Virus record (IMG/VR): IMGVR_UViG_3300034061_005656
Length of the DNA: 20,000 nucleotides
Source: an uncultured virus (IMG/VR IMGVR_UViG_3300034061_005656)
Taxonomy: Duplodnaviria > Heunggongvirae > Uroviricota > Caudoviricetes
Direction: 5' to 3' (one strand)
Shown: positions 1 through 16,939 of the stretch, one piece after another
Numbering within the stretch: the first letter of the stretch is position 1
How the letters are laid out: each line of letters starts with the position of its first letter
The notes under the pieces: model-generated
What the model saw: the letters and a program-made list of their open reading frames with translations, nothing else
The model's database searches: none
Told to the model about the DNA's origin: nothing
Program-made: the position numbers and the translations under genes

Positions 1-43
1 ATTGTTATAATAGTCTCAGCAGCCCATGACGAAAGGACACATA

Positions 44-214
44 ATGGACAAGCCAAACATCACATCCACCTATATTCATCACGCAGATTTTGATGAGCCA
101 GTTCCCTTGAATTACAGAGACCCGATCCATTACGCGATCAGCGTGCTCTGCCTTGAAGGCAAGGCTCCAGAGTTCAAGATTCTGGTGGGCCCCCAAGTCG
201 TGCTCCCGCGCTAA
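44..214 (+). CDS. Hypothetical cassette protein (56 aa)
   Basis: Motif at 1-11; SD GACGAAAGGAC 28-38; ATG 44 (track start at 26 is upstream of the SD). Confidence 0.8.
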   Translation: MDKPNITSTYIHHADFDEPVPLNYRDPIHYAISVLCLEGKAPEFKILVGPQVVLPR

Positions 215-254
215 GCGGGGCACAGCCCAAAACTAAAATTGTTATAATGATCTC

Positions 255-340
255 ACCAGCCAGCCACAAGGGCAGGCCCTAATAAATAGCCGTGAGAGGG
301 CGCTCGGCGGACCTGACCTAAGGTCCAAACAAAATGCCCA
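255..340 (+). ncRNA. Candidate structured small RNA (ORF-less cassette)
   Basis: Lies between motifs 229 and 350 with no SD or ORF. Stems GGGCA(270-274)/TGCCC(335-339), GGACCT(309-314)/AGGTCC(321-326) and GCC..GAG/CTC.GGC (289-308); GCCCT(276-280) is complementary to loop AGGGC(297-301). Confidence 0.45.
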
Positions 341-342
341 AT

Positions 343-750
343 GGAATCAAAAACTAAAGATGTTATAATGAATTTATCAGCCACGATGGCTGGTAACGAC
401 GAAAGGACAAGTCAACATGAACAAGAAATGGTCACTCCTCAAGAGCAGCGACATCGGCCCAATGGGACGCGGTCAGAATGGCAAGAAAAAGGTGTACGAA
501 GTCACCCTTGATGGCCAAACAGTCACCTTCGAATGGGGTATGGCTGAGATGACCCGCCGTCAGCGCCAGGTTCGCACCTTCAGCACCTCACAGGCCGCCA
601 TCAACGCGGCTTACGAAAAAGTGGGCGCAAAGCTGGATCGCGGATACTCGGTCGCCTACGCGGTCTAAGCGGTCAAGGAGCCGGGCCGGCGAGAGCCGGA
701 CCCGGCCCCGCCACTCCGCAAAACTAAAGATGTTATAATGATCTTGTACG
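343..750 (+). repeat. 408-bp exact direct repeat, copy 1 (motif + WGR gene + hairpin + next motif)
   Basis: Read base by base as identical to 3866-4273 (offset 3523). Confidence 0.95.
417..668 (+). CDS. WGR-domain protein (copy 1)
   Basis: Pattern KVYEV..DG..V.FEWG......Q...F.....A......K...K..RGY fits the WGR domain (WGM here); SD GAAAGGAC. Confidence 0.8.
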   Translation: MNKKWSLLKSSDIGPMGRGQNGKKKVYEVTLDGQTVTFEWGMAEMTRRQRQVRTFSTSQAAINAAYEKVGAKLDRGYSVAYAV

Positions 751-769
751 CATGACGAAAGGACAAAAT

Positions 770-1051
770 ATGCACACTACAGAAACACACGCCGTGGAGT
801 TCTTGGTAACAGATTCAATCTGCTACGAAGTAATTCGCCAAACAAACAAAACAATCTCACTGAGAAAATGTTTAAGCGGTGAAAAGGTCAGCGGAGAGTG
901 GCCAGTGGTCTACTCAGCAGCGGTGAGCAACCCAGAAGGAGAAACCATTACATTGCGACTTCGCAAGGATGGGACCTTCCGCAGAGCAAACTGGGCGAAT
1001 CCAATGCGCTTCACAAGCCAGCCAGCCTTCCGCACTGACTACGCCTTCTAA
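770..1051 (+). CDS. Hypothetical cassette protein (93 aa)
   Basis: Motif 720, SD GACGAAAGGAC, ATG 770. Confidence 0.8.
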   Translation: MHTTETHAVEFLVTDSICYEVIRQTNKTISLRKCLSGEKVSGEWPVVYSAAVSNPEGETITLRLRKDGTFRRANWANPMRFTSQPAFRTDYAF

Positions 1052-1142
1052 GGCGTAGCCGGTGGCGGCCGGCGGTGCCGGCAGGAAAACTAAAATTGTT
1101 ATAATGATTCCATGCCCACAAGGGCGAAACGAAAGGACAAAA

Positions 1143-1448
1143 ATGAAGAACGTAACGACTACATGGAAAGCTTTCGGAAAGCCAACGTACTCGGTCATCA
1201 TGATTGAAAACGACATGACAGACCTCGAGATCTGCGAAGAGCTTTTCAAAGCGACCAACATCTACTCTGGCTGGCTGTGGGACGCACTCCAGTACGACAT
1301 CCCTGCGGATCGCACGCACACAGCGTTGTCTGTTGGCGATGAGATCAGCGTCGATGGCACGGTGTATCGCTGCGCCCCAGTCGGCTGGGAAGTTGTCGCA
1401 AAGTACGAAGTTGACAACTTCGCTCTGTCGGAGAAAGACTTCCGATAG
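1143..1448 (+). CDS. YodL-like domain protein (101 aa)
   Basis: Motif 1086, SD, ATG 1143; HTALSVGDEISVDGTVYRCAPVGW resembles the YodL-family (H/R)SLSVSDV..DG..Y.VD..GF motif. Confidence 0.65.
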   Translation: MKNVTTTWKAFGKPTYSVIMIENDMTDLEICEELFKATNIYSGWLWDALQYDIPADRTHTALSVGDEISVDGTVYRCAPVGWEVVAKYEVDNFALSEKDFR

Positions 1449-1490
1449 AAACTAAAGTTGTTATAATAGTAAGTAACGAAAGGACAAAAA

Positions 1491-1739
1491 ATGAAAACAA
1501 TTGAAGAAATGACAGTCGAAATGGAGCCGCGGCTCAATCGCGGTGGAATAAAAGTTCTCACTGTGAAAGCTCTCCTAGAAATTCTTATGGAGTGTGACCC
1601 AGAAGATGACGTGGTGATCGGTGCTCACGCGGTTGGACTCGAGTGGCTAAATGTCTCCTCGGTGACTCTCCCTGATGGAGATGAGTACATCGCTCTCACT
1701 CTCAATGTCGAAGACACTTTCGACCACTGCCAATTCTAA
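1491..1739 (+). CDS. Hypothetical acidic cassette protein (82 aa)
   Basis: Motif 1448, SD ACGAAAGGAC. Confidence 0.8.
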   Translation: MKTIEEMTVEMEPRLNRGGIKVLTVKALLEILMECDPEDDVVIGAHAVGLEWLNVSSVTLPDGDEYIALTLNVEDTFDHCQF

Positions 1740-1791
1740 AAACTAAAATTGTTATAATAATCTTATCAACCTACAACAAAGGACACAAACA

Positions 1792-2025
1792 ATGAACTCA
1801 ACAATCCACATCCCAGGACGACTCACTGCAAAAATTAGCAATGGAAGAATTATTGGATATGTCTTTGATATTGCGGCAAATGACGCCGGATACTTTGGAG
1901 ACGCTTTCAATCTTATTGAAGGTGACGAAATGACAGCAAATGAGTTCTCAGACTTAGTTACGGGTTCACTCATGTTTACTCAAGATCGCAAGTCCGCGTT
2001 CTTCTCGGTTGAGCTGGGCGCATAG
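1792..2025 (+). CDS. Hypothetical cassette protein (77 aa)
   Basis: Motif 1739, SD AAAGGAC. Confidence 0.8.
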   Translation: MNSTIHIPGRLTAKISNGRIIGYVFDIAANDAGYFGDAFNLIEGDEMTANEFSDLVTGSLMFTQDRKSAFFSVELGA

Positions 2026-2083
2026 CTTCTAAAAACTAAAATTGTTATAATAATCTTACCAACCTACAACAAAGGACAACCCA

Positions 2084-2266
2084 ATGACACCTACAAAAGA
2101 ACACAAGGCAATCGTGAATGACATCATCGCATTCGCGAGCGACTTCCCACGCGAGATTGTGGATGAGGTAATTTCAGACTACATCCAGATGCTCAAGGAC
2201 GCCGATGGGCTGAGCAACCTCGATGTGGACGTCATCATCAGCATGCTCTGGGCGCGCGGATACTAA
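2084..2266 (+). CDS. Small helical acidic protein, paralog of 4286-4465
   Basis: Motif 2032, SD AAAGGAC; 18/59 ungapped identities with 4286-4465. Confidence 0.8.
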   Translation: MTPTKEHKAIVNDIIAFASDFPREIVDEVISDYIQMLKDADGLSNLDVDVIISMLWARGY

Positions 2267-2311
2267 ACTAAAGTTGTTATAATAACATTGTCAATTACGA
2301 AAGGACACACA

Positions 2312-2713
2312 ATGACAGTAGATAGAGAGACGCTTCGCGCAATCGCGGACGAACTGACGCCCATCATCGAGGCAACGCTAAAACGACATGGTCTTGACAC
2401 TCCCAAAATGCAGTGGAAGTATGGCGCAATGCTCGAGCTCAAGGCGACTGCGGCCGCGTTGAGCGAAGGCCCCAATGGAATCAACCTCGGCTCAAGAGAA
2501 GCTCAGTACTACACTCGCTTCGGCTTTCCCGGTCTTGACGCAAAACTTGGTACAGTGTTTAGCGTCAAAGGTGAAGAGTTTGCGTTCGCGGGAATTGCTG
2601 CATCACGCAGGAAGTACCCAATTTACGCTAAAAACATTGAAACCGGAGCTTACATTTTCTACACGGAAATGGTGATTCCTACAATCAACGCTGCCGCAAA
2701 AGCGGCAGTGTAA
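2312..2713 (+). CDS. Hypothetical phage protein (133 aa)
   Basis: Motif 2264, SD ACGAAAGGAC, ATG 2312. Confidence 0.8.
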   Translation: MTVDRETLRAIADELTPIIEATLKRHGLDTPKMQWKYGAMLELKATAAALSEGPNGINLGSREAQYYTRFGFPGLDAKLGTVFSVKGEEFAFAGIAASRRKYPIYAKNIETGAYIFYTEMVIPTINAAAKAAV

Positions 2714-2722
2714 GGAGCGGTC

Positions 2723-2938
2723 ATGGGAAATGAAAAAACAATTGACACTTGCTGCGATTTAGTGCAAGATGACCAAGTTGAGTACGCGGTTGACTCGCTC
2801 GGTGAAATAGCGAAAATCCTCAGCCTGGCTGAGAACGCAGACAGCGTGACGGACATGCGTGGGCTCATTGCGGTAGCAATATTCAAGTCAAGCGAAGCCC
2901 GGTCACGGATCAAAAAGATGAGCGAAATGCGTTTCTAA
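2723..2938 (+). CDS. Hypothetical protein (71 aa)
   Basis: SD AAGGAG overlaps the upstream stop; coupled to the next gene (TAATG). Confidence 0.7.
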   Translation: MGNEKTIDTCCDLVQDDQVEYAVDSLGEIAKILSLAENADSVTDMRGLIAVAIFKSSEARSRIKKMSEMRF

Positions 2939-3177
2939 TGAGTCTTGCACACGGATCGAAGAAAGAGTCTCTCGCGAAGACCGCAACCTGGTATCTAAGC
3001 GATTTGTTGCTGACGGGCGTCATAGCGTTCGCTGTAACTCGAGACGTTTCAACTTCTTTGATAATTGCCGGCTTGCAGCAGACGTGGGAAGTTTTGCTCT
3101 ATTACTTTCACGAAAGAGTCTGGGTCAAACTTCAGGCCCGCCGTGGGGCAGAAAATGCAGACGGGTCGGCTTTTTAG
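2938..3177 (+). CDS. DUF2061-like small membrane protein
   Basis: SLAKTATW...hydrophobic segments...LYYFHERVW signature typical of DUF2061. Confidence 0.75.
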   Translation: MSLAHGSKKESLAKTATWYLSDLLLTGVIAFAVTRDVSTSLIIAGLQQTWEVLLYYFHERVWVKLQARRGAENADGSAF

Positions 3178-3305
3178 CTTCAGGCCTGCCATAGGCCTGC
3201 AAGTGCAGACGGGTGCCACTTTCATCCACTGAGGTTCTGAGCATGTTCAGAACCTGAAGTAGGCAGTAAATACCACAAAAGCCTCTTACAAGCTCCTGAG
3301 GTCTC

Positions 3306-3321
3306 AAAAAGCCGGTTTTTT
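3306..3321. terminator. Possible bidirectional terminator AAAAAGCCGGTTTTTT
   Basis: Near-palindrome with A and T tails immediately before motif 3327; the stem is weak. Confidence 0.35.
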
Positions 3322-3352
3322 GTCTAAAAACTAAAATTTATATAATGACGAC

Positions 3353-3415
3353 ATGACAAACGACATGACATGCCCAAAGGAACTGAAAACTAAAGTTGTT
3401 ATAATGACAACATAA
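3353..3415 (+). pseudogene. Truncated cassette stub: 20-codon leaderless ORF reading through the next promoter motif
   Basis: ATG is 7 nt after TATAAT of motif 3327; only about 40 bp separate motifs 3327 and 3386. Confidence 0.4.
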
Positions 3416-3440
3416 CCTACCACAAAGGACAACCTACAAA

Positions 3441-3608
3441 ATGACAAACAAACAAAAAAACTCATCATCTTTTGGATTCTCGGTGCATCTCGAGTTTAGA
3501 AAAGTTACTGGCTCAGTGACGCGGGTTCGGAGACTTCGTCTCGTGCGCTTTAGCTCACTCAGGTTGCCAAGACTGCGCGGCTCCAATGCTGCTACCAGTC
3601 TTGTGTAG
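3441..3608 (+). CDS. Small Arg-rich hypothetical protein (55 aa)
   Basis: Motif 3386, SD AAAGGAC; hand translation MTNKQKNSSSFGFSVHLEFRKVTGSVTRVRRLRLVRF... Confidence 0.55.
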   Translation: MTNKQKNSSSFGFSVHLEFRKVTGSVTRVRRLRLVRFSSLRLPRLRGSNAATSLV

Positions 3609-3679
3609 CAAGAATCTAAAACTAAAGTTGTTATAATGTATTTATCAGCGACCCGCTGGTACCGACGAAAGGACAAAAC

Positions 3680-3844
3680 ATGCTCGGTGGAAAGCCATCA
3701 ACACGACTTCACGAGGTCATCGACACATCGTACCAATACACGATGATTGTTCACACAGGCTCAAAGAGCGCCTGTAACGCCTACTGGCTGAATCAGCCGG
3801 CCAAAAAGCGTCAAGACCTCGAGGTTCGAGTCGCCAAGCGCTAA
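3680..3844 (+). CDS. Hypothetical cassette protein (54 aa)
   Basis: Motif 3618, leader hairpin, SD GACGAAAGGAC; MLGGKPSTRLHEVIDTSYQYTMIVHTGSKSACNAYW... Confidence 0.75.
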   Translation: MLGGKPSTRLHEVIDTSYQYTMIVHTGSKSACNAYWLNQPAKKRQDLEVRVAKR

Positions 3845-3865
3845 CGCGCTTGGGGCTCCGGCCCC

Positions 3866-4273
3866 GGAATCAAAAACTAAAGATGTTATAATGAATTTAT
3901 CAGCCACGATGGCTGGTAACGACGAAAGGACAAGTCAACATGAACAAGAAATGGTCACTCCTCAAGAGCAGCGACATCGGCCCAATGGGACGCGGTCAGA
4001 ATGGCAAGAAAAAGGTGTACGAAGTCACCCTTGATGGCCAAACAGTCACCTTCGAATGGGGTATGGCTGAGATGACCCGCCGTCAGCGCCAGGTTCGCAC
4101 CTTCAGCACCTCACAGGCCGCCATCAACGCGGCTTACGAAAAAGTGGGCGCAAAGCTGGATCGCGGATACTCGGTCGCCTACGCGGTCTAAGCGGTCAAG
4201 GAGCCGGGCCGGCGAGAGCCGGACCCGGCCCCGCCACTCCGCAAAACTAAAGATGTTATAATGATCTTGTACG
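3866..4273 (+). repeat. 408-bp exact direct repeat, copy 2
   Basis: Identical to 343-750. Confidence 0.95.
3940..4191 (+). CDS. WGR-domain protein (copy 2, identical)
   Basis: Identical to 417-668. Confidence 0.8.
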   Translation: MNKKWSLLKSSDIGPMGRGQNGKKKVYEVTLDGQTVTFEWGMAEMTRRQRQVRTFSTSQAAINAAYEKVGAKLDRGYSVAYAV

Positions 4274-4285
4274 GAAGGACACGAA

Positions 4286-4465
4286 ATGAAAACACAGAAG
4301 CAAATACAGCAGATCGCCAAGGACATCTTCGCGGACGCGAGTGAATACCCAGCGGACGTGCGGGACGAGGTTCTCGACGAGCTAATCAACATCTGGCTCC
4401 TCGATGAGGACCTCAGTGCCGGCGAGAAAAGCCAACTGATCATTGCGGTGTCGGCCCGCCGCTAG
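4286..4465 (+). CDS. Small helical acidic protein (59 aa), paralog of 2084-2266
   Basis: Motif 4243, SD GGAAGGAC; MKTQKQIQQIAKDIFADASEYPADVRDEVLDELINIW... Confidence 0.8.
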   Translation: MKTQKQIQQIAKDIFADASEYPADVRDEVLDELINIWLLDEDLSAGEKSQLIIAVSARR

Positions 4466-4512
4466 CGTGCCAGCACCTCGGTGCTGAAAACTAAAATTGT
4501 TATAATGTACTC

Positions 4513-4671
4513 ATGGCGAGTAACAAGAAATCAAAAACAGTGGTGAAGTGGTCAGACGAAGACCATCAAGCTTTTGCGGATCGTAACATCCTCCGCGCTC
4601 AGACGATTCCAAATAAAAAAAGAATCGCGAGTCGCAAGGCGTGTCGCGGTCGAGCGCGAGGAGAGTGGTAG
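4513..4671 (+). CDS. Leaderless small basic protein (52 aa), paralog of 6801-6959
   Basis: ATG 7 nt after TATAAT; MASNKKSKTVVKWSDEDHQAFADRNILRAQTIPNKKRIASRKACRGRARGEW. Confidence 0.85.
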   Translation: MASNKKSKTVVKWSDEDHQAFADRNILRAQTIPNKKRIASRKACRGRARGEW

Positions 4672-4734
4672 TCGCGGTGCCGGCTTGAATGTGCGGCGTA
4701 GCCTGCAGAAAACTAAAGTTGTTATAATGTATTT

Positions 4735-4947: not shown

Positions 4948-5012
4948 CCGGCCTCAATAAACATAAAACTAAAATTGTTATAATGATCTTATCAGGAAGG
5001 GATAAAATAAAA

Positions 5013-5270: not shown

Positions 5271-5337
5271 GCGGCTTCATCTTCGGATCGGTAAAAACTA
5301 AAATTGTTATAATGTATTTATCAGGAAGGAATGAAAA

Positions 5338-5511: not shown

Positions 5512-5581
5512 AATAAAAACTAAAATTGTTATAATGTATTTATCAGCCGCGGTGGCTGGTACAAAAAGAAAAAAGGACAAA

Positions 5582-5875
5582 ATGAACAAAATCACTTTTA
5601 TGCAGGCAGTCGAATTGATCGATATCGCGGCTCAAGAAAATCGCTTGTGGCACTACAATGGCGGATCAGGTTACGTCCGCGTGAGTGACTCATCGAACGT
5701 TTTGATGGTCATCGAGCACGCTTCGTCGCAAGGTGCGAGCGTTACACTGCACGATGGCACTGAGTACTTCAAGGCGTACAATGGCACGCAGTTTGCGCAG
5801 TCAGAGGCGCATCGCAATCGCGAGTCTCTCGTCGAGTTTTTCTCAACGCGGTTCGTCAACCCTGTGCTGCTATAA
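5582..5875 (+). CDS. Hypothetical cassette protein (97 aa)
   Basis: Motif 5516, leader hairpin, SD AAAGGAC. Confidence 0.8.
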   Translation: MNKITFMQAVELIDIAAQENRLWHYNGGSGYVRVSDSSNVLMVIEHASSQGASVTLHDGTEYFKAYNGTQFAQSEAHRNRESLVEFFSTRFVNPVLL

Positions 5876-5926
5876 AACTAAAATTGTTATAATGTTTTTA
5901 TCAGCTACAAATACAAAGGACACACA

Positions 5927-6235: not shown

Positions 6236-6243
6236 CGCAAGAC

Positions 6244-6330: not shown

Positions 6331-6362
6331 CAGCAAAAACTAAAATTGTTATAATGGTATTC

Positions 6363-6722: not shown

Positions 6723-6800
6723 ACACGCCGCTCTGCCGGCTGGCCTCGCGCCAGCCGGTCACAGCTCAACCCGCAAAACTAAAATTGTTATAATGTTCTT

Positions 6801-6959: not shown

Positions 6960-7050
6960 CACTCCGTCTGGCTGCGCCGGCCACAAGCCGGCCAGCCGGC
7001 AAAACTAAAAATGTTATAATGACTTTATACCAATGACGAAAGGAAACCAA

Positions 7051-7305
7051 ATGACACTCAATGAACTCATCGAGCGCCTCGAAGAATTACGAGACGAGGT
7101 TAGCGGCAACACTCCAATTCGCGGAGCGTTCCAGCCAAACTATCCTCTCGTCGCGGACGTCGCGGCGATTACCGCGTTTGTCAGCGAGGACGCGGACGAG
7201 TCCGGAATCTACATCGCTCTCGGCGATGGTCGTGACTACGGCTCACGAGACATGTGGGAAGATGAGATCGTGTACCGCGACGAAGAAGACGAAGACGAAA
7301 ACTAA
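7051..7305 (+). CDS. Acidic hypothetical phage protein (84 aa)
   Basis: Motif 7001, SD GACGAAAGGA; MTLNELIERLEE...AFQPNYPL; stop lies inside motif 7298. Confidence 0.8.
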   Translation: MTLNELIERLEELRDEVSGNTPIRGAFQPNYPLVADVAAITAFVSEDADESGIYIALGDGRDYGSRDMWEDEIVYRDEEDEDEN

Positions 7306-7347
7306 AATTGTTATAATAATCTTGTCAACGACGAAAGGAAACATAAA

Positions 7348-7464: not shown

Positions 7465-7581
7465 TTTCCGTCGTGCCGCGGAGGCCTGGTCGGTATTGGT
7501 GTTCCGGCCGGGCTCCGGTGGCAATTTGTAAAAACTAAAATTGTTATAATGTATTTATCAACCAATACGGAAGGACCCACA

Positions 7582-7755: not shown

Positions 7756-7757
7756 CC

Positions 7758-7976
7758 GTGAGGTCAGAGCTACCTCCGTGTCTCTTATGCGGTGGCAAGG
7801 TCGAGTACCTGTGGGACGAATCGGCAAATCTCTTGGACGCGGCCTATGTCACAATTTCCCCTGGCTATGGGTCAAAGCACGACCTGACCGAGTTTACTGC
7901 AATCTTGTGCGATGAGTGCATCACTGCGGCAGCAAAAAAAGCTGCAGTGCGTCTTTCATGGTCTGTAGAAAACTAA
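7758..7976 (+). CDS. Small C4 zinc-finger-like protein
   Basis: CLLC...CDEC with a GYGSKHD segment; GTG start 3 nt after the upstream stop; stop lies inside motif 7969. Confidence 0.7.
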   Translation: MRSELPPCLLCGGKVEYLWDESANLLDAAYVTISPGYGSKHDLTEFTAILCDECITAAAKKAAVRLSWSVEN

Positions 7977-8016
7977 AATTGTTATAATTATCTTGTACGC
8001 AACGAAAGGACACATT

Positions 8017-8175: not shown

Positions 8176-8260
8176 GCTCGCGGTGCCGGCTGGATTGTGT
8201 AAAGATTTTGTCAAAACTAAAATTGTTATAATAATTACACAACGACAAAACGGAGACACA

Positions 8261-8439: not shown

Positions 8440-8619
8440 ATGACAGAAAAAATGTACAAAGATCAAGAGTTCACAATTCATCCGCTTGGCGGAGATCGGT
8501 GGACTTTGCGAATGATGACTCCACGCGGAATCGCTGGACTTGGTGTCTTCAAATCGCCGGACGAAGCAAAAGAGTACGCTGCTGAAATTGGCGGAGTAGT
8601 CGCTGAAGACCAAAACTAA
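8440..8619 (+). CDS. Hypothetical protein (59 aa)
   Basis: Hand translation MTEKMYKDQEFTIHPLGGDRWTLRMMTPRGIAGLGVFKSPDEAKEYA...; stop lies inside degenerate motif 8612. Confidence 0.7.
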   Translation: MTEKMYKDQEFTIHPLGGDRWTLRMMTPRGIAGLGVFKSPDEAKEYAAEIGGVVAEDQN

Positions 8620-8660
8620 ATTTGATAAAATAAAAACATAACGACAAAGGAGACAACACA

Positions 8661-9176: not shown

Positions 9177-9376
9177 TGACTCTTTCATCTGCGGTCTATT
9201 CTGTGAAAATCAATCCTAATGCGGCAAGCGTAAAAACTCGCCGGCGGATAAAACAGAATGGTCCGCTGTTTGAAAAAATTGACAAAACTGCGAGAGAAGA
9301 CTCAATCTATTTGCGGTCATTGAAAACGAAGTGGGAGGGCTGGATCCCTCTTGCTGAGGTGAGCTTAAAAAACTAA
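9176..9376 (+). CDS. Hypothetical basic protein (66 aa)
   Basis: TGATG coupling; stop lies inside motif 9369. Confidence 0.7.
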   Translation: MTLSSAVYSVKINPNAASVKTRRRIKQNGPLFEKIDKTAREDSIYLRSLKTKWEGWIPLAEVSLKN

Positions 9377-9395
9377 AAAGAGTATAATTGGAAAT

Positions 9396-10709: not shown

Positions 10710-10852
10710 TAACAATTATTTTTGCCGTAGGGACGATTTTTGTCGTTGCAGCGGTTCTTTTGCGGATTGGCAGCAATGAAGCAACGCGGCGCCGAGAAGA
10801 AGCGTCATCGCGCCATCGCCACCCAACTTCAAGAAAACTAAAGTTGTTATAA
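10706..10852 (+). CDS. Small single-pass membrane protein (48 aa)
   Basis: ATGA overlap with thyX, SD GGAAGGA; N-terminal TM segment then basic tail RRREEASSRHRHP; ends inside motif 10834. Confidence 0.65.
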   Translation: MITIIFAVGTIFVVAAVLLRIGSNEATRRREEASSRHRHPTSRKLKLL

Positions 10853-10859
10853 TGGTCAT

Positions 10860-11138
10860 ATGATGCAAACAATGAAAATTACCAAGATCGAAGTTACCAA
10901 TGAGATTTCCCGAGTGTGGGTTGAAATGCTCGGTCAGAATCGCGAAGTCGTTTTTACCAAGTGGATCGGCGAAGACAAGTTTTTAGTCGAAAACCCAAAA
11001 AACGTAGCGTACGCAAGGTTCGCGGTTGAATCCGAGTTAGCGCAGGTTTTTAGTTGTAACCCAGAAGTACACGAGGCCCTGTGCCGGCTGGAAATTGGCG
11101 GTGCCGGCTGGAAATGGCCAGTGCCGGCTGGAAACTAA
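10860..11138 (+). CDS. Leaderless hypothetical protein (92 aa)
   Basis: ATG 7 nt after TATAAT; 3' end runs through a 3x20-bp repeat and stops in motif 11131. Confidence 0.75.
   Translation: MMQTMKITKIEVTNEISRVWVEMLGQNREVVFTKWIGEDKFLVENPKNVAYARFAVESELAQVFSCNPEVHEALCRLEIGGAGWKWPVPAGN
11081..11134 (+). repeat. Three tandem GTGCCGGCTGGAAA boxes with 20-bp period
   Basis: Copies at 11081, 11101 and 11121; the third runs into promoter motif 11131. Confidence 0.9.
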
Positions 11139-11186
11139 AATCGTTATAATGTACACATACCGAATTACACAGAAAGAGAGCAACGC

Positions 11187-11678
11187 ATGAAAGTTGACTT
11201 GGAGTTAGCGCGCGAGACGTATCGTGCGGACATGGCGAGTCTCATCGCCGAGTACGGAAGCCCATCAAACGTCCCAGGGGACGACCAGCGTGTGGCGGCT
11301 GAAAAATTACGTGCGGCCTATGCGATAGACGCAAATCCAGAAATGCCAGTTCCTCAGGTTTTTCGCATTTACACCATCGACTCCCGAGTGTGGAATTTAT
11401 TCGTTGAAAACCCAGAAGAAATGAAAATAGAGCGAAAGTTGTCTCGCGCAGACAAGCAAGCAAAAGTTCTCAACTGGGCAGCGGCCAATGTCGGGGAAAA
11501 AGTAGACTTGACCAAACTTATGGAAATCGGCGATATCGCGTACTCTATGGCGAAAAAGATCGTTGAGGATCGCCCGGACATATTCTGGAAAATCAAACGC
11601 GGTAACTTTGAGGTCCGAGACCCTGAAGCGGATCGCAAGGCGGACAAAGAAGCAGCAGATAAGGTTGCCGGCAAGTAA
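11187..11678 (+). CDS. Hypothetical phage protein (163 aa)
   Basis: Motif 11131, purine-rich SD, long open frame. Confidence 0.85.
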   Translation: MKVDLELARETYRADMASLIAEYGSPSNVPGDDQRVAAEKLRAAYAIDANPEMPVPQVFRIYTIDSRVWNLFVENPEEMKIERKLSRADKQAKVLNWAAANVGEKVDLTKLMEIGDIAYSMAKKIVEDRPDIFWKIKRGNFEVRDPEADRKADKEAADKVAGK

Positions 11679-11725
11679 ACTAAAGTTTATATAATAGACT
11701 TGTCAACAACAAAAGGAGACACATC

Positions 11726-11893: not shown

Positions 11894-11895
11894 TC

Positions 11896-11997: not shown

Positions 11998-12224
11998 AGC
12001 AGCCAGTAGAAGTGCAGCCAATCGCAATCACGACTGACAACAGCTCACTCGTATTTTGGTTCTTCGCGAACGAAGAGTCTATCGTAAAAATCCCGTGTGT
12101 CAGCGAAAAACATGCGGAAGAGCTAGCAGTGCTCTGTCATCGAGCCTTCGGCCTGCGGTCAAAAGAAAACTCTTTTACGACAGGGTTGTTGCATCGAGAC
12201 TTAGAAATTGGTTGCAGTCTGTAA
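11994..12224 (+). CDS. Hypothetical protein (76 aa)
   Basis: Coupled start; weak similarity to 16940-17149 (P..SE.HA...A......GL). Confidence 0.65.
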   Translation: MKQPVEVQPIAITTDNSSLVFWFFANEESIVKIPCVSEKHAEELAVLCHRAFGLRSKENSFTTGLLHRDLEIGCSL

Positions 12225-12269
12225 ACTAAAGTTGTTATAATGTACTTATACGATACGGAAGGACACTAA

Positions 12270-12554
12270 ATGTCAAACATGTCAAACTACCCACCAGGCG
12301 TCACAGGCAACGAGTACGAAATTGCCGGCGGAGTCGAGACTGAACTGACAATTACAGCTTCGTGTGAAAATACAGAATGTGCTGAGTACGGCGCTGACGT
12401 TGACGACCAAGAAGTGCTCGCTGAAGCGTACGGCGGAACTGTCACTTATGACTGGGACTGCCCAGTGTGTGGGACAACCTCGTCATACGAGCGAGACGAG
12501 TCCGAGTGGGACGATCGAGACTACGACGACTGGGTAGACCACGGTCGCCCGTAG
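12270..12554 (+). CDS. Acidic zinc-ribbon-like phage protein
   Basis: Motif 12222, SD GGAAGGAC; SNYPPGV N-terminus, CENTEC...CPVC. Confidence 0.8.
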   Translation: MSNMSNYPPGVTGNEYEIAGGVETELTITASCENTECAEYGADVDDQEVLAEAYGGTVTYDWDCPVCGTTSSYERDESEWDDRDYDDWVDHGRP

Positions 12555-12590
12555 CCGGACTTCGCTCGTGAACCTGGTACCATAGTCGAT

Positions 12591-13187
12591 GTGACCACCA
12601 TCATCGCCGTCCAAGGCCCGTCATGGGCAGTTGTGGGATTTGATTCTCGCGTAACTGAGGAAGGCGGACGATCGTACACACTTGGTCGCGGTTCATCGAA
12701 GGTTGTCAAAAACGGTCAGTATCTTCTTGGTGCTGCCGGCGACGTTCGCGCAATCAACATTCTTGCATATTCATTTCAACCGCCAAAGGCGATGGACTTA
12801 ACAGGAGTTCGACTTGATCGATTCATTACTAGCAAATTTGTACCGGCTCTACGTTCGTGCTTCGAAGAGCATGGCTACGCTTCGAGAGAATCGAAGGAAC
12901 AAGCGCAACACGGCTCAGTAGTTCTTGCAATCGTGAACGGTCAGATCTATGAAATAGACGAAGACTACGCTTGGGTGCGGGACACAACAGGCATTTACTC
13001 GTTCGGCTCCGGCGGAGATTATGCACTGGGCGCGATGTATGCAATGACTGGAGACAGCCTTGCGGCATCTGGCGTAGAAACTACCAAAAAAGTTATTCGT
13101 GAATCTTTGGCAATTGCGGCAAAGCTTGACGTAGGATCAGGCCCTCCGTTTCACATCATGCATCAATCACAACCAATTACAAAATAA
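12591..13187 (+). CDS. Proteasome beta-subunit/HslV-like threonine protease (Ntn hydrolase)
   Basis: N-terminal (M)TTIIA with Thr1, GFDSR, SKV, GAAGD and FGSGG catalytic-site motifs; GTG start 8 nt after TACCAT (leaderless). Confidence 0.88.
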   Translation: MTTIIAVQGPSWAVVGFDSRVTEEGGRSYTLGRGSSKVVKNGQYLLGAAGDVRAINILAYSFQPPKAMDLTGVRLDRFITSKFVPALRSCFEEHGYASRESKEQAQHGSVVLAIVNGQIYEIDEDYAWVRDTTGIYSFGSGGDYALGAMYAMTGDSLAASGVETTKKVIRESLAIAAKLDVGSGPPFHIMHQSQPITK

Positions 13188-13209
13188 ACTTAGCAAAAAG
13201 AAAGACAAA

Positions 13210-13485
13210 ATGACAAAAGAAAATACGCACAGAACCGTTTCCCTTGCGGATCTCACGTGGAGAGAGTACGCGGCTTGCTCAGGGAAGCAAGAATTGTTTT
13301 TCAGCGATCATAAACTAACTGTGGTCCGCGAAGCAAAGCAGGTGTGTGCGAAATGTGCAGTGCGGCAGCAGTGCTTGGCCCATGCAATGAAGCACGACGA
13401 GTACGGAGTCTGGGGCGGCATGACTGCAAATGAAAGAAGAAAAGCACGCCGAGCGCAAAAAGTGAATCTTCGTATCGCGAAGTAG
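13210..13485 (+). CDS. whiB: WhiB-family (Wbl) Fe-S transcriptional regulator
   Basis: WREYAAC...FF...AKQVCAKCAVRQQC...YGVWGGMTANERR: four Cys plus the GVWGG turn and a basic C-terminal tail. Confidence 0.95.
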   Translation: MTKENTHRTVSLADLTWREYAACSGKQELFFSDHKLTVVREAKQVCAKCAVRQQCLAHAMKHDEYGVWGGMTANERRKARRAQKVNLRIAK

Positions 13486-13527
13486 TATAAGGTAGTTCTT
13501 CATCAGTTCGTTCAATGGGAGCACAGC

Positions 13528-13686
13528 ATGCAAGAAGAAGAAAACGTAAAGCCAAAGCCAAACAAATGGGAATGCCCAGAATGCAAGCAGCGGGCTACTT
13601 TTTACGTCATGCCGTCTACGCCTCCTTCGTGTGCGAACCCAGAAGCTCACCCGAAAAAATCTTACAAAATGGAACAAAAAAAGTAG
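13528..13686 (+). CDS. Small zinc-finger-like protein (52 aa)
   Basis: GGGAG SD; MQEEENVKPKPNKWECPECKQRATFYVMPSTPPSCANPEAH... Confidence 0.65.
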   Translation: MQEEENVKPKPNKWECPECKQRATFYVMPSTPPSCANPEAHPKKSYKMEQKK

Positions 13687-13845
13687 CAGGAGATTTCGCT
13701 TTCTCCCCTACGGAAAGATAAAATGACAACACGGTTGCTTAAAGAAGCCGAGGGCCTTTTTAAGAGGTCCCGGGAAGTTTTGGCCTTATTAGCCGAAACG
13801 CCCTCAACAGAAACAAACCAAACAACACAAAGAAAGAAGATAACA

Positions 13846-14031
13846 ATGACTACAGAAGTTAGCCCGAACCAAGCCGGAGAGCTTTACGCGTCAGGCAAGT
13901 CAGTGGCCGAAGTGGCAAGCGCACTCAACGTTACCTACGGCAAGGCTCGTCGTTTGATTCAGGAAAGCGGTACCTCAGTTCGCGATGCTTCAGCACGTCT
14001 CAAGGGTCGCACCCGCAAAATCAACTCATGA
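13846..14031 (+). CDS. Small helix-turn-helix DNA-binding protein (61 aa)
   Basis: LYASGKSVAEVASALNVTYGKARRLIQESG HTH pattern; AGAAAGAAGA leader places the start at 13846. Confidence 0.8.
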   Translation: MTTEVSPNQAGELYASGKSVAEVASALNVTYGKARRLIQESGTSVRDASARLKGRTRKINS

Positions 14032-14189
14032 AAGATTTTGTTCAAGCAATTGTGTGGCCGGCGGTATTCTCCGTCGGACTGCACGTTGGAGCAGTTATCA
14101 TGGCAATTGCGGGCGCAAGCGTAACCTCGGTTGCGGCTGTCAGTGTGGCTGGAGTCACATCGGCAGTTTTGGCCACGCGGTCGAGATAA
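14028..14189 (+). CDS. Small membrane protein (53 aa, about 2 TM)
   Basis: ATGA overlap; almost entirely hydrophobic or small residues. Confidence 0.7.
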   Translation: MKDFVQAIVWPAVFSVGLHVGAVIMAIAGASVTSVAAVSVAGVTSAVLATRSR

Positions 14190-14236
14190 GCCAGAATTGG
14201 CAGATTCAGCAAAACTAAAAATGATATAATAACTTG

Positions 14237-14298
14237 GTACAGCCCGTAAGGCTGCGCATTGGCGTGGCGTCTGGGCAAACTCGGACGCTTCCGCTTTT
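14237..14298 (+). ncRNA. Candidate small RNA (two hairpins + T tail) downstream of motif 14211
   Basis: CAGCC/GGCTG (14240-14254), GCGTCTGGG/CTCGGACGC (14267-14288), TTTT at 14295; a separate TACTAT -10 at 14301 could serve the next gene. Confidence 0.4.
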
Positions 14299-14337
14299 AG
14301 TACTATAGAAGCAAGATTCACAAAAGGAGATACGGTT

Positions 14338-14514
14338 ATGGCCGCAGAAGTTTACAAGGTAACAGTAGTCGATGACATGGGCAACGAAATGATTTCGTAC
14401 GTTCTTCCAGAAAACTTGCGAGGTTACTCGGCAATGATGGCGTCAGAATACGGCAACATCAAGTCTGAAGGAATGTCAAAAGCTGACCTCCCCGAAGACG
14501 TTGTCTTAGACTAA
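14338..14514 (+). CDS. Hypothetical protein (58 aa)
   Basis: SD AAAGGAG; MAAEVYKVTVVDDMGNEMISYVLPENLRGYSAMMASEYG... Confidence 0.75.
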   Translation: MAAEVYKVTVVDDMGNEMISYVLPENLRGYSAMMASEYGNIKSEGMSKADLPEDVVLD

Positions 14515-14567
14515 TTGTCTAAGTCAGCAAAAACAATTCACCCCTCTACAGAAAGACAAAAAGACAT

Positions 14568-14918
14568 ATGTGGGTATTTACTCAAGACGGATTCATCAGC
14601 GCGGTCGATAATGGCCACGTTCCAGGCAAGCTTGCGGTTCGCGCACGCGACAAGAAGTCACTCGAGCTTCTCGCGGCTCTTACTCAGCAAGAAATTGTTA
14701 AAAGCAAGAATGCGGACTACCCGTATCGCGTGTTCGTAGCAAAAGACGACTTCACAAACTTTCTTGCATCACACGTAGAAAGTCTCGACTACAGCAATTT
14801 TAAAGATCGCGTGTACTCAACTCGCGGCAATAAGTTTGCTTCTGCTTGCGGTAAAGTCTGGGCAGCGATGCTCGATGTAACCGACAAGGAAGCAATTGGA
14901 ATTGGCTTATACAGCTAA
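14568..14918 (+). CDS. Conserved phage hypothetical protein (MWVFT..GF.S...VRAR...DYPYR...DYSNFK family)
   Basis: Recognisable recurrent phage family pattern; function unknown. Confidence 0.85.
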   Translation: MWVFTQDGFISAVDNGHVPGKLAVRARDKKSLELLAALTQQEIVKSKNADYPYRVFVAKDDFTNFLASHVESLDYSNFKDRVYSTRGNKFASACGKVWAAMLDVTDKEAIGIGLYS

Positions 14919-14937
14919 CTAACTTTAGGAGATAAAA

Positions 14938-15396
14938 ATGTCAAATGAACAATTCACGCCGCCGGTCCCGCCGGCACAAAAGAACACTCAAAGGAACGTC
15001 TGGCTAGCGACGTTGACAGCAGCGGTTGTAGTTTTAGCAGTTGCTATCTTTGTAACTCAGTCTGGGTCTGACTCAAATTCTTCGCCAAGTTTTAATTCAA
15101 GTGCGGTAATCGAAGACAGCCAAAGCCAGAATAAATATGACGACTACTATCAGGCTGTCTTAAACGCTTCCGGCATGGCTAACTCAGAAAGCAAAGCATC
15201 TGTTTTAGAATTCGGCGACTTCGTCTGCGGTCTTCTCGATGACGGCTTTTCAGTCGGTGAAATCCTCGAAGAAATGCGCAAGTATACTACAGGCTCAATG
15301 TTTACTTCAGAGTACGCGGCTGCGGTAATGCTCGGTGCAGTTACGTACCTCTGCCCAGAATACGAAGTTCTTGTAGAAGACTACGTAGGACGATAA
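14938..15396 (+). CDS. Membrane-anchored DUF732-like protein
   Basis: N-terminal TM, Ser-rich linker, then D.YY..L...G...G..VC..L..G...AV..LCP disulfide domain typical of actinobacterial DUF732; SD AGGAG. Confidence 0.75.
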   Translation: MSNEQFTPPVPPAQKNTQRNVWLATLTAAVVVLAVAIFVTQSGSDSNSSPSFNSSAVIEDSQSQNKYDDYYQAVLNASGMANSESKASVLEFGDFVCGLLDDGFSVGEILEEMRKYTTGSMFTSEYAAAVMLGAVTYLCPEYEVLVEDYVGR

Positions 15397-15675
15397 ATGC
15401 CTCGCGTCGCAAAAGACAAAACCAAATACGAGTGCGCCCATTGCCGCCAGCGGTTTGTCAAAATGCTCGACCACATGAATCATGTCATCGAGCAGCACGA
15501 TACTGGGTACAAAGAGCGCGAAGACAGATTGCGTAGACCAATTTCGTGCTGGCGTTGCGGAACACGCGATGTTTACGCGAGCGGAGAAGACAACTGGTTT
15601 TACTGTGATTGCGGTTGGGTGCTACCACGCAATTGGGTAAACGGTCAGCTTGTCATTGACAAGGAAGAACAGTGA
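15397..15675 (+). CDS. C2H2 + C4 zinc-finger protein
   Basis: YECAHCRQRF...HMNHVIEQH (C2H2-like) and CWRC...CDC. Confidence 0.8.
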   Translation: MPRVAKDKTKYECAHCRQRFVKMLDHMNHVIEQHDTGYKEREDRLRRPISCWRCGTRDVYASGEDNWFYCDCGWVLPRNWVNGQLVIDKEEQ

Positions 15676-15827
15676 ACTACATTAAAAGAAAAATTGTTAT
15701 TGGATTGGAAACAGCTTGTGAGCTAACCGGTCACCGTTGGTGTTTTCGCTTGGCAACTTGGTCAATCAAACTTGACCGTCGCTGGGGCACGGGCCTATGG
15801 CGAGAGGTAAGTCAAAATGGCGACTAA
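15672..15827 (+). CDS. Hypothetical protein (51 aa)
   Basis: AAGGA SD, GTGA overlap; ...CELTGHRWC...KLDRRWGTGLW. Confidence 0.6.
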   Translation: MNYIKRKIVIGLETACELTGHRWCFRLATWSIKLDRRWGTGLWREVSQNGD

Positions 15828-16071
15828 AACAAAAGCAGCAGCAACGGCGCATCTTCTTGTAGACACGGACAGGATTGCCGGCTGGATTTTTATTCAAACG
15901 ACAGATGCCGGTACTTATACTTTTGGCCCGTTCGAAGACTACGAAGATCTTCGCATGTGGCTTGCAACAATCGCGGTCGAGTCTAACATTGATGGCAATG
16001 CGGTTCCACTAATAAATCCTGCATCAGAACCCGTCAAATTCTGGGAGCCTTTGTATAAAATTGTCGAGTAG
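15817..16071 (+). CDS. Hypothetical protein (84 aa)
   Basis: GAGAGG SD, FGPF motif. Confidence 0.75.
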   Translation: MATKTKAAATAHLLVDTDRIAGWIFIQTTDAGTYTFGPFEDYEDLRMWLATIAVESNIDGNAVPLINPASEPVKFWEPLYKIVE

Positions 16072-16093
16072 GCACAACCGAAAGGCATGAATA

Positions 16094-16264
16094 GTGGAAG
16101 TCGCACAACGTTTCACGACGGACGAGCTCGCGGATCAACTGCAAAAAGCTGAAGAAAAAGCTGCGCTATGGAAGTCCGTGGCAGCTGGTCTGTACGACTA
16201 TTACTTTCTCGGTACTGGCATTTCCACTTGCATACGAAATTACGAAGATGCCGCAAATGACTGA
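16094..16264 (+). CDS. Hypothetical protein (56 aa)
   Basis: GAAAGG SD, GTG start; hand translation MEVAQRFTTDELADQLQKAEEKAALWKSVA... Confidence 0.6.
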   Translation: MEVAQRFTTDELADQLQKAEEKAALWKSVAAGLYDYYFLGTGISTCIRNYEDAAND

Positions 16265-16418
16265 CATCGTTCAACGGCTGCTCGATGCGCACGCGGACAT
16301 GAGAACTGGCACACGCGAAGAACTAAAAGAAGCCGCTGACGAAATAATTTCTCTCAGAGAAAAACTTCGCGAAGCGCAGACACAGAGTGACCACTGGTTT
16401 ATGCGGTCCACAGAGTAG
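16257..16418 (+). CDS. Small coiled-coil phage protein (53 aa)
   Basis: MTDIVQRL...EAADEI..LR pattern common in phages; overlaps the upstream stop. Confidence 0.7.
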   Translation: MTDIVQRLLDAHADMRTGTREELKEAADEIISLREKLREAQTQSDHWFMRSTE

Positions 16419-16460
16419 AATAAAATACAAGCAGGCGCAAGCAAAAGAAAAGAGGCGTCA

Positions 16461-16877
16461 ATGACAGAACAAGCAGAACCGTTTGATCGGTACAACATGA
16501 CGCCAAACGAATGCATACGTCTTGTAGACGTCATGAACGACATCGTTATTGAAGAACTCAGTCGCCTTGCGGAGCAGGAAGATGACATTGATCAAAGCGA
16601 TCGACATGCGGTTATGGAAAAAATGATCGAAGCGGCTGGAATGACATTTGATGATATTCTTCGTTTCTGCGAAATTGGCGAGTACATCTCAATGGACCGA
16701 GAAACATATGCCATGACGCCAGAGGAAGCCGCGCAGTGGAAGTACCGTCGCGACATTGCGGTGGCAATGATAGAAAACCTGGTAGTTCAAGCGGTTAGTC
16801 AAGGAATCGTTAGCGCCGACGAAGTTGATATCGACCCCAACATTACGATGCTCGAGGAGATTTGGAAGCTTTCGTAA
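16461..16877 (+). CDS. Acidic hypothetical protein (138 aa)
   Basis: AAGAGG SD; stop overlaps motif 16877. Confidence 0.8.
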   Translation: MTEQAEPFDRYNMTPNECIRLVDVMNDIVIEELSRLAEQEDDIDQSDRHAVMEKMIEAAGMTFDDILRFCEIGEYISMDRETYAMTPEEAAQWKYRRDIAVAMIENLVVQAVSQGIVSADEVDIDPNITMLEEIWKLS

Positions 16878-16939
16878 AAACTAAAGTTGTTATAATGATA
16901 CTTACCAGCCACCGTGGCTGGAATGACGAAAGGACAATC

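Follow-up and report, generated by a model that had tools for sequence, protein, structure and literature searches.

We analysed a stretch of 20,000 nucleotides, here called the window, from an uncultured virus of the Caudoviricetes (IMG/VR record IMGVR_UViG_3300034061_005656), in which a 20-nt motif, AAAACTAAARTTGTTATAAT, recurs in front of small genes. From its sequence we take the window to be most of the early-gene array of a freshwater actinophage related to phage DSL-LC01. The array probably comprises about 50 host-type promoters, mostly one per small gene, which together with their leaders double as substrates of homologous recombination. The most likely function of the copies is that of ordinary early promoters; the shuffling is supported by comparison of relatives and is known in kind. 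In the proposed mechanism, some 50 co-oriented copies of promoter plus leader would give almost all gene boundaries a patchy homology of 20-65 nt. Copies in the same genome or in co-infecting relatives would then undergo general homologous recombination, by which whole expression-ready cassettes would be deleted, duplicated, inserted, replaced or reordered.

The window contains 34 full copies of the motif and one which is cut at base 1, all on the + strand and co-oriented with the genes. The cut copy, ATTGTTATAAT, occupies window 1-11, and its 5' part is present in the IMG/VR record G006. With the cut copy included, 27 copies are located before 8.3 kb. An earlier note on this DNA had counted a 20-bp motif about 35 times, 27 of them in the first 8.3 kb, and was right on both numbers. 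A search with AACTAAANNNNNTATAAT at ≤1 mismatch gave 34 matches in the window, all on the + strand; in 200 shuffles the mean was 0.01 and the maximum 1. The consensus is AAAACTAAA(A/G)TTGTTATAAT. In its downstream half TATAAT is exact in 33 of the 34 copies, a TG is found two bases upstream (-15/-14) in 30 and the base after TATAAT is G or A in 32. On the + strand of window 1-17000 TATAAT occurs 34 times, i.e. in 33 full motifs and in the cut copy, and the complete 24.6-kb array has 48 such sites on the + strand but none on the - strand (6.2 expected). The upstream half, which contains the box AACTAAA, is as conserved as the -10 and almost never stands alone. The box was found 52 times on the + strand, 48 of these at fixed spacing to a -10, and twice on the - strand; in 50 kb outside the array no site of this type was present. 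Dyad symmetry is absent from the motif, i.e. the repeat is direct and asymmetric.

Two near-identical records, G006 and G001, were used to extend the window; the comparators were metagenome assemblies. Both records represent the same phage. G006 is 100% identical over window 1-750 and ends at window 750, G001 covers window 4147-19976 at 100%. The contig boundary of each falls on the right-hand edge of an exact 408-bp repeat (343-750 = 3866-4273), and G001 starts exactly 127 nt inside this repeat (127 nt before 4273), as is expected of an assembly graph branching there. The joined stretch of G006 and window/G001 (39 kb) carries 50 motif copies, and the array measures 24.6 kb (G006 41.7 kb to window 17000). 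Thus, the array does not start at base 1 of the window as had been claimed; its start, seen in G006, is about 7.5 kb further upstream. It is confined to one region: no copy was found on the - strand, in the 18.1 kb of downstream structural (late) genes, in G006 10-30 kb or, overall, in about 50 kb of phage DNA flanking the array.

The large terminase (17869-19290) has 79.7% identity to that of Actinomycetia phage DSL-LC01, a lake phage assembled from a metagenome; Microbacterium and Gordonia phages come next. The gene order of DSL-LC01 is that of the window, HslV-like peptidase, WhiB, terminase and peptidoglycan-binding protein, and DSL-LC01 possesses its own version of the motif, (GA)TTCTAAAGATGTTATAAT(A/T)GAATCA, of which a loose pattern detected 32 copies at 22.5-43.3 kb (first 48 kb scanned). 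The window phage itself is recurrent in lake-water metagenomes of 17 studies; among the runs listed for window 4300-12300 none was of RNA. A megablast of window 1-8300 against GenBank phages returned no match. A locus search based on ThyX yielded 80 loci, six of them with the array (L047, L067, L100, L101, L103 and L105). In a scan of viral contigs with CTAAAGNNGTTATAAT the matches listed were mostly single chance ones, and the scan was not usable as a census. A motif scan of metagenome contigs yielded 20 loci, none nearer than about 88% to the window phage, and thus added no events between close pairs. Two cultured relatives are built differently. Microbacterium phage A3Wally (L150, 1-15500) has another intergenic repeat, GTTTAGTGGCGTGATTCTTGCGTG, in eight copies together with TGCTGTAGAAT-like -10 elements, and in Gordonia phage GodonK (L171) the genes are tightly packed without cassettes.

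TGnTATAAT is the extended -10 of primary-sigma promoters, the usual distance from TATAAT to a transcription start is 6-7 nt, and Actinobacteria frequently have leaderless messages. Each motif copy is most likely a promoter for the host primary-sigma RNA polymerase, composed of an extended -10 and an AACTAAA(R) box at about -24 to -17, with no -35. A canonical -35/-10 scan was not enriched (22 versus 17.5 in shuffles) and recovered just two motif copies; therefore the promoters appear to lack a -35. Transcription would start 6-7 nt after TATAAT, either directly on an ATG or opening a leader of about 30 nt. Many leaders would have a 5' hairpin at the start and a GAAAGGA ribosome-binding site at the end, and the preceding cassette would often be closed by a GC-rich hairpin without a U-tract. 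In six copies an ATG is positioned 6-7 nt after TATAAT; five of these open ORFs of 52-119 aa, the sixth a 16-aa upstream ORF (uORF). Behind 25 of the 35 copies an ORF led by a Shine-Dalgarno (SD) sequence was found (GAAAGGA type, median leader about 30 nt), in 12 of the 25 with a CGAAAGGA leader. The remaining copies have a more distant SD (two) or no ORF (two; the leaderless spacing was counted by hand). Several leaders start with a CAGCCnnnnGGCTGG hairpin. From this anatomy we infer promoter activity, early timing, the start site and the role of the hairpins, and it agrees with the earlier proposal that the repeat is a promoter, one per small gene. The stop of the 16-aa leaderless mini-ORF (9396-9446) shares bases with the ATG of the following ORF 9446-9640 (TAATG), an arrangement suggestive of translational coupling.

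To our knowledge, no host element at -24 to -17 is known which would account for the box. It may be read by the host enzyme with accessory factors or by a phage protein. A box in this position is foreign to known primary-sigma promoters, and this weighs against early promoters served by the host alone: a phage factor may be needed, and the copies would then be middle promoters. Possibly, then, the upstream half AAAACTAAAR is a docking site of a phage DNA-binding protein, either a MotA-like activator of middle promoters or a stoperator-like repressor. We hold this as a tentative alternative, which is compatible with a promoter function of the motif. The box is conserved as well as the -10, yet it hardly ever occurs apart from it, has no dyad symmetry, and a candidate binding protein was not identified. 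The core CTAAAGnnGTTATAAT is retained in every related array examined (G002-G005, G007, G009, L100/L101, DSL-LC01), and the bases 5' of the core (5' end AAAA, GAAA, GATT or ATCT) and the presumed first transcribed bases are lineage-specific. A lineage-specific 5' end of the box is expected under co-evolution with a phage protein; however, recombining copies that evolve in concert can also acquire such flanks. Of the genes upstream of the array in G006, the first seven on the + strand have no motif and could be the true first-expressed set, and the terminase promoter has a -10 but no box. On the other hand, a consensus-grade extended -10 is usually enough for the host enzyme (textbook).

The terminase and the gene that follows are leaderless behind -10 elements without the AACTAAA box; for the latter gene this element is at window 19294-19311 (TGTATAAT plus 7 nt plus ATG). 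The elements suggest a second class of promoters.

Could the 20-mer be the promoter of a phage-encoded RNA polymerase which initiates at the purine right after TATAAT? A conserved length of 20 nt is typical of promoters of single-subunit polymerases, and the purine is there in 32 of 34 copies. Yet neither the 58 proteins of the window nor the 38 ORFs of ≥90 aa scanned in the flanking DNA (about 68 kb) contained an RNA polymerase domain, and the match to the extended -10 consensus is too close for chance. We consider this highly improbable.

The cassettes have a regular layout. Before 8.6 kb there are 27 motif-to-motif intervals; 22 hold one ORF, three hold two or three, and two hold none (250-349, 3347-3385). 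This corresponds to the predicted layout with mostly a single small ORF per interval. The predicted sequence of elements, i.e. motif, leader or leaderless ATG and ORF with a frequent hairpin and GCCGGC box, was likewise recovered (25 SD-led and six leaderless copies, 23 of 34 strong folds, GCCGGC 36 versus 5.6). Folding was stronger in the 60 nt preceding the motif than in 60-mers drawn at random from the window (mean -19.5 versus -12.1 kcal/mol; Mann-Whitney p = 1.6e-6). Folds of -15 kcal/mol or below precede 23 of the 34 copies versus 30% of random 60-mers, i.e. about one third of the copies have no strong hairpin. Terminator-like sites with U-tracts were not enriched (29 versus 25.6 in shuffles); hence the hairpins are taken to lack U-tracts. 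The array (24.6 kb) has 36 GCCGGC sites, where base composition predicts 5.6, versus 22 sites in 48.9 kb elsewhere; most of them are in hairpins upstream of the putative promoters. 

Concerning the two intervals without an ORF, 250-349 is a GC-rich stretch of 100 nt after a motif copy and could be a small RNA, whereas 3347-3385 separates a tandem pair of copies. Rfam (gathering score) and ARAGORN found nothing in the window. The array is depleted in TTAA (19 versus 98 expected), CTTAAG is absent from it versus 14 sites outside, and TCCGGA occurs once versus 12 times. These depletions are consistent with avoidance of restriction sites.

The comparison of close relatives bears on recombination at the repeats. 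Three close pairs were available, G006/G005 (93-98% identity), G003/G002 (96-97%) and L100/L101 (95-97%), and differences >50 bp were counted. There were eight; the gaps within aligned blocks were all ≤31 nt. Five of the eight were whole cassettes with a junction repeat of 22-65 nt or a motif-to-motif replacement. Four of these consisted of a single cassette present in one phage only, with end repeats of promoter/leader sequence of 51, 65, 29 and 22 nt. In one such case G005 contained a hybrid leader, the first part of which is that of the left copy of G006 and the second part that of the right copy. This indicated a crossover inside the repeat. In the fifth difference two cassettes of G003 correspond to one in G002, and the exchanged segment extends from ≤22 nt after a TATAAT to the next motif start.

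The window phage itself has two motif-bounded duplications. The 408-bp exact repeat includes two successive motifs, with 7 nt before the first and 11 nt after the second, and the cassette 3386-3637 is duplicated from motif start to TATAAT end. Variants were also seen in contigs of run X9, a lake metagenome. In a contig of 1057 nt the WGR cassette is followed immediately by the motif at 1086; therefore the cassette 722-1085 is absent motif-to-motif in the X9 strain. In a further X9 contig an additional 257 letters stand between 2283 and 2295, right after TATAAT. Sixteen of the 24 loose contig ends evaluated fall in window 1-17000, and 12 of the 16 are no more than 25 nt away from a motif; sequence this close to a motif amounts to 14% of the stretch. 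Joints with a short side (20-56 nt, e.g. 414>12285 and 3998>1650) were not used, as they possibly derive from paralogues or other organisms. A single-cassette circle was not found among 15 of 29 contig joints (assembled contigs, no raw reads).

More distant relatives were compared as well. DSL-LC01 and G003 share 15 high-scoring segment pairs, 13 at 68-82% and two single-cassette islands at 92.4% and 90.1%. Both islands begin in a motif. One continues, in both phages, until 6 nt beyond the following motif; the other ends with the stop codon, which in G003 precedes the following motif by 1 nt. At the island junctions the 5' variant of the motif is that of the respective phage. Of the two G003 cassettes that stand in place of the G002 cassette, one is the 90% island. 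Cassettes are transposed between G004 and G003 (76-89%), and six of seven internal left ends of synteny blocks are ≤3 nt from a motif. In G009, which has 90-92% identity over window 11677-19857, the homology starts exactly at the motif at 11677. The order of cassettes is not identical between relatives, as the proposal of shuffling demands. The longest collinear run of array proteins in six relatives (best tblastn hits) comprised 36 of 62 shared genes where motifs are dense (before 9400) versus 40 of 44 where they are sparse; this figure is descriptive only, because the comparisons share ancestry and paralogues may inflate the disorder. Taken together, the close pairs, duplications, X9 contigs and DSL-LC01/G003 islands support the gain, loss, duplication and reordering of cassettes which the earlier note had proposed, with junctions in the promoter/leader repeat, and add replacement to the list.

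Several observations weigh against exchange between the repeats. Three of the eight close-pair differences were not motif-to-motif: a promoter-less ORF of G006 has its right end at a motif, its left end, however, at TCTAAACTAA, a partial motif with about 10 nt of microhomology; a 90-bp mini-ORF of G003 abuts a motif with 3-4 nt of microhomology; and a leaderless ORF is deleted in L101 at a TACA microhomology. Furthermore, both whole-gene insertions of G009 (13730 and about 15390-15403), which are in the motif-poor part, have no motif at their ends. Thus, indel breakpoints follow the earlier expectation at the repeat in five of eight cases, and in the other three and in both motif-poor indels they do not. 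X9 contigs break at both G009 insertion sites, an independent assembly of the same type of variant. In a rough tally 21 of 26 breakpoints were in the promoter-leader zone versus about 65% expected if they were merely intergenic. As the motif fills most intergenic gaps, positional enrichment does not separate the repeats from a null of breaks between genes, and the synteny comparisons are not independent of each other. Finally, the contig evidence consists of 24 of 125 loose ends and 15 of 29 joints, the comparators are metagenome assemblies throughout, and repeats are where de Bruijn contigs readily break.

These points would fit a simpler explanation. The array may be a mere battery of strong promoters and its turnover ordinary actinophage mosaicism, i.e. 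illegitimate recombination plus selection for breaks between genes. Indels of whole genes without a motif (two of two between window and G009), the three events that are not motif-to-motif and the positional enrichment just mentioned are what it predicts or tolerates. Nevertheless we regard it as rather unlikely. Five of eight events and both duplications have 20-65 nt of homology at the junctions, unlike illegitimate recombination; the hybrid leader of G005 came from a crossover inside the repeat; both ends of the 90% island of DSL-LC01/G003 are in the motif, with the own 5' variant retained; and dense motifs go along with a much weaker conservation of gene order. It is thus the homology at the junctions, together with the hybrid leader and the islands bounded by motifs, that favors repeat-mediated exchange.

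A site-specific recombinase is not required for repeat-mediated exchange, and there is no hint of a dedicated enzyme, because crossovers occur at different places in the 22-65 nt of homology and the motif is without dyad symmetry. The earlier note had called the process integrase-independent. None of the 58 proteins of the window has an integrase domain, which agrees; the phage as a whole, however, encodes a serine recombinase of 226 aa (Resolvase and Recombinase domains), the only recombinase detected. Its gene occupies L140 8731-9408 on the - strand (about 18.8-19.4 kb of G006), some 22 kb upstream of the array; L140 also contains a second WhiB gene (18412-18741). Were the motif the crossover site of this recombinase, the array would be integron- or shufflon-like. 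A resolvase-family gene is present in this phage and in DSL-LC01, and all copies are directly oriented. Yet crossovers are placed at different points between the 5' A-run and the interior of the leader, with junction repeats of 22-65 nt, the dyad symmetry of serine-recombinase sites is missing, the gene is distant from the array and the cassettes carry their own promoters, unlike those of integrons. We give this very little credence. The integron and shufflon readings were set aside together with that of a phage RNA polymerase, on account of variable crossovers, absent dyad symmetry and the failure to find a polymerase domain in the ORFs scanned.

The earlier note went further and saw a dedicated shuffling system. 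The data did not bear this out: homologous recombination between repeated promoters as a by-product fits equally well. In the most elaborate version, the conserved box at -24 to -17 would be read by a lineage-specific phage protein which switches the ~50 promoters and recruits or stimulates strand exchange there. The array would then be no mere by-product but a dedicated, self-targeting device for cassette exchange, with excised promoter-gene circles passing between co-infecting lake actinophages. The lineage-specific 5' ends of the box and the motif-bounded islands of DSL-LC01/G003 could be footprints of such a device. We consider it distinctly improbable.

What do the cassettes encode? In array ORFs of ≤110 aa substitutions are concentrated at the third codon position, with 34 of 53, 119 of 215 and 73 of 130 in the three close pairs (p = 4e-6 to 3e-11), and in four ORFs of the window 18 of 25 differences were at codon position 3 (counted from the metagenome-contig rows evaluated). 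This showed that the small ORFs are under purifying selection and are real genes. The Pfam families in the window are WGR (a duplicated 83-aa gene), DUF2061, DUF7717, ThyX, WhiB, DUF732 and DUF6011. For 47 of 54 array proteins there was no PHROG assignment; one further match was an HslV-family peptidase. In seven related arrays homologues were missing for most of the small ORFs located in window 1-8.3 kb. An annotation as anti-defence or host-takeover protein was obtained neither by Pfam nor by PHROGs. The assignments neither support nor exclude the suggested anti-defence or host-takeover cargo. The WGR gene (83 aa) is present twice in the window at 100% (417-668, 3940-4191); DSL-LC01 and G004 have two diverged copies each, one of them adjoining the terminase. 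Three cassette proteins are strongly acidic (6363-6722, 7348-7464 and 7051-7305; e.g. MGYDYDYDWDGRDD...EEDEEESE). Such a composition, as in DNA-mimic anti-restriction proteins, is a purely compositional hint.

The closest known parallel are the promoter-early stem-loops (PeSLs) of the T4-type phages RB49/phi1, T4/PST and KVP40/nt-1, which are described as repeated early promoters plus stem-loops in plastic regions with orphan cargo and exchange between repeats (Arbiol et al., 2010, PMC2839356; Comeau et al., 2014, PMC4122927). For PeSLs, promoter and terminator activity and mini-circles were demonstrated experimentally, whereas the present array is known from sequence alone. The similarities are a plastic region in which a repeated, presumably strong host-type promoter precedes small orphan genes, in many cases with a predicted stem-loop immediately before the promoter, and junction homology at the indels and replacements of close relatives, with gain, loss and exchange of cassettes without an integrase. 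There are differences as well. The host here belongs to the Actinobacteria and the phage lineage is unrelated to T4; the array promoter has no -35 or AT-rich UP-like tract, but combines an extended -10 with the box at -24 to -17; leaderless starts are predicted at six copies; U-tracts are lacking in the hairpins, which are found at about two thirds of the copies; and there is one continuous 25-kb array, with about one copy per 300 bp in the densest 8 kb, instead of several hyperplastic regions. Because the terminase is closest to those of DSL-LC01, Microbacterium and Gordonia phages and not to the T4 superfamily, the array is PeSL-like but not a PeSL descendant.

The host-takeover regions of SPO1, T5 and T4 have clustered early promoters, which are co-oriented, strong and host-type and drive short genes without assigned function at an end of the early region. 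The array resembles them in its many co-oriented, presumably host-type promoters before short genes of no assigned function. It differs in that there is no sign that it is first-injected DNA or a terminal repeat, and in that no takeover function is assigned. With integrons it shares single, unrelated small genes which are separated by a repeated joint and vary cassette-wise between relatives; in contrast, an adjacent integrase and attC-type imperfect inverted repeats are absent (none in the window's 58 proteins), every cassette has its own putative promoter and crossovers vary within simple direct homology. The stoperators of Cluster A mycobacteriophages are dozens of short, asymmetric intergenic sites in one orientation relative to transcription. 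Likewise, the motif is a short, asymmetric site present many times in the same orientation between genes of an actinophage, but it is fused at fixed spacing to a -10 (48/52) and start codon and is confined to one genome region, with none in 50 kb outside. A literature search found no publication linking PeSLs or repeated promoter arrays to actinophages, and in the paper on DSL-LC01 the words "promoter" and "repeat" are absent.

Promoter-mediated modular shuffling, in print only for T4-type phages of Gram-negative hosts, would thus extend to abundant freshwater actinophages with another promoter architecture. It offers a concrete account of the turnover of orphan early genes in these phages. 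The motif also provides a compact, testable candidate promoter (extended -10, -22 box, leaderless variants) for low-GC freshwater Actinobacteria, for which genetic tools are lacking. Assemblers and annotators should be aware that contigs of this lineage break and vary at repeats.

Table 1. Putative promoter copies, their cassettes and repeats in the window (positions in nt of the window).
Feature	Position	Strand	Remarks
cut candidate promoter (-10 part)	1..11	+	ORF 44-214, 56 aa, SD leader
candidate promoter	229..248	+	no ORF before next copy
candidate promoter, AAAGATG variant	350..369	+	5' hairpin; ORF 417-668, 83 aa, WGR domain
candidate promoter, AAAGATG variant	720..739	+	ORF 770-1051, 93 aa; cassette 722-1085 missing in run X9 strain
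candidate promoter	1086..1105	+	ORF 1143-1448, 101 aa
candidate promoter	1448..1467	+	ORF 1491-1739, 82 aa
candidate promoter	1739..1758	+	ORF 1792-2025, 77 aa; promoter plus leader 1734-1785 98% identical to 2027-2078
candidate promoter	2032..2051	+	ORF 2084-2266, 60 aa
candidate promoter	2264..2283	+	ORFs 2312-2713, 2723-2938, 2938-3177 (DUF2061); 257 extra letters after TATAAT in X9 strain
candidate promoter, TTTATATAAT variant	3327..3346	+	tandem with next copy; no ORF
candidate promoter	3386..3405	+	ORF 3441-3608, 55 aa, arginine-rich, doubtful
candidate promoter	3618..3637	+	5' hairpin; ORF 3680-3844, 54 aa
candidate promoter, AAAGATG variant	3873..3892	+	ORF 3940-4191, second WGR copy
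candidate promoter, AAAGATG variant	4243..4262	+	ORF 4286-4465, 59 aa
candidate promoter	4487..4506	+	leaderless ORF 4513-4671, 52 aa; ATG 6 nt after TATAAT
candidate promoter	4709..4728	+	leaderless ORF 4735-4947, 70 aa
candidate promoter	4965..4984	+	ORF 5013-5270, 85 aa
candidate promoter	5294..5313	+	ORF 5338-5511, 57 aa
candidate promoter	5516..5535	+	5' hairpin; ORF 5582-5875, 97 aa
candidate promoter	5874..5893	+	ORF 5927-6235, 102 aa, DUF7717
candidate promoter	6336..6355	+	leaderless ORF 6363-6722, 119 aa, acidic; ATG 7 nt after TATAAT
candidate promoter	6775..6794	+	leaderless ORF 6801-6959, 52 aa, paralogue of 4513-4671
candidate promoter	7001..7020	+	ORF 7051-7305, 84 aa
candidate promoter	7298..7317	+	ORF 7348-7464, 38 aa, acidic
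candidate promoter	7531..7550	+	ORFs 7582-7755, 7758-7976
candidate promoter	7969..7988	+	ORF 8017-8175, 52 aa
candidate promoter	8213..8232	+	ORFs 8261-8437, 8440-8619
degenerate candidate promoter, TAAAAT	8612..8631	+	ORFs 8661-9176, 9176-9376
candidate promoter, no TG	9369..9388	+	leaderless 16-aa uORF 9396-9446, then ORFs through ThyX (10026-10709)
candidate promoter	10834..10853	+	leaderless ORF 10860-11138, 92 aa
candidate promoter	11131..11150	+	three tandem 20-nt GTGCCGGCTGGAAAT units before (11077-11134); ORF 11187-11678
candidate promoter	11676..11695	+	G009 homology begins exactly here; ORFs 11726-12224
candidate promoter	12222..12241	+	operon-like run 12270-14189 including HslV-like peptidase 12591-13187 and WhiB 13210-13485
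candidate promoter	14211..14230	+	107-nt structured leader; about 12 ORFs 14338-16877
last candidate promoter	16877..16896	+	5' hairpin; ORFs 16940-17149, 17261-17827 (DUF6011)
-10 element TGTTATAAT without box	17854..17862	+	6 nt before leaderless ATG of large terminase (17869-19290)
408-bp exact repeat, copy 1	343..750	+	promoter copy, WGR gene, hairpin, next promoter copy plus 11 nt
408-bp exact repeat, copy 2	3866..4273	+	spanned by run X6 contig 3815-4976
cassette between two motif copies	3386..3637	+	99% second copy 4.2 kb upstream of window in G006; absent from G005

Two further repeats were noted. A tandem repeat (TACACGTC)n occupies window 19863-20000 and continues in G001. It directly follows the terminase, the peptidoglycan-binding gene and a strong terminator hairpin (19822-19851), and beyond it G001 has a second copy of window 19798-19835. 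At the matching site DSL-LC01 has a 600-bp block of ACGC-rich repeats. The (TACACGTC)n repeat could be a packaging or replication site. Lastly, at the end of ORF 2938-3177 (window 3129-3230) there are two tandem copies of a direct repeat, CTTCAGGCC...GCAGACGGGT, about 45 nt long, and a third copy (76%) is present in G006 about 360 nt before the window start.

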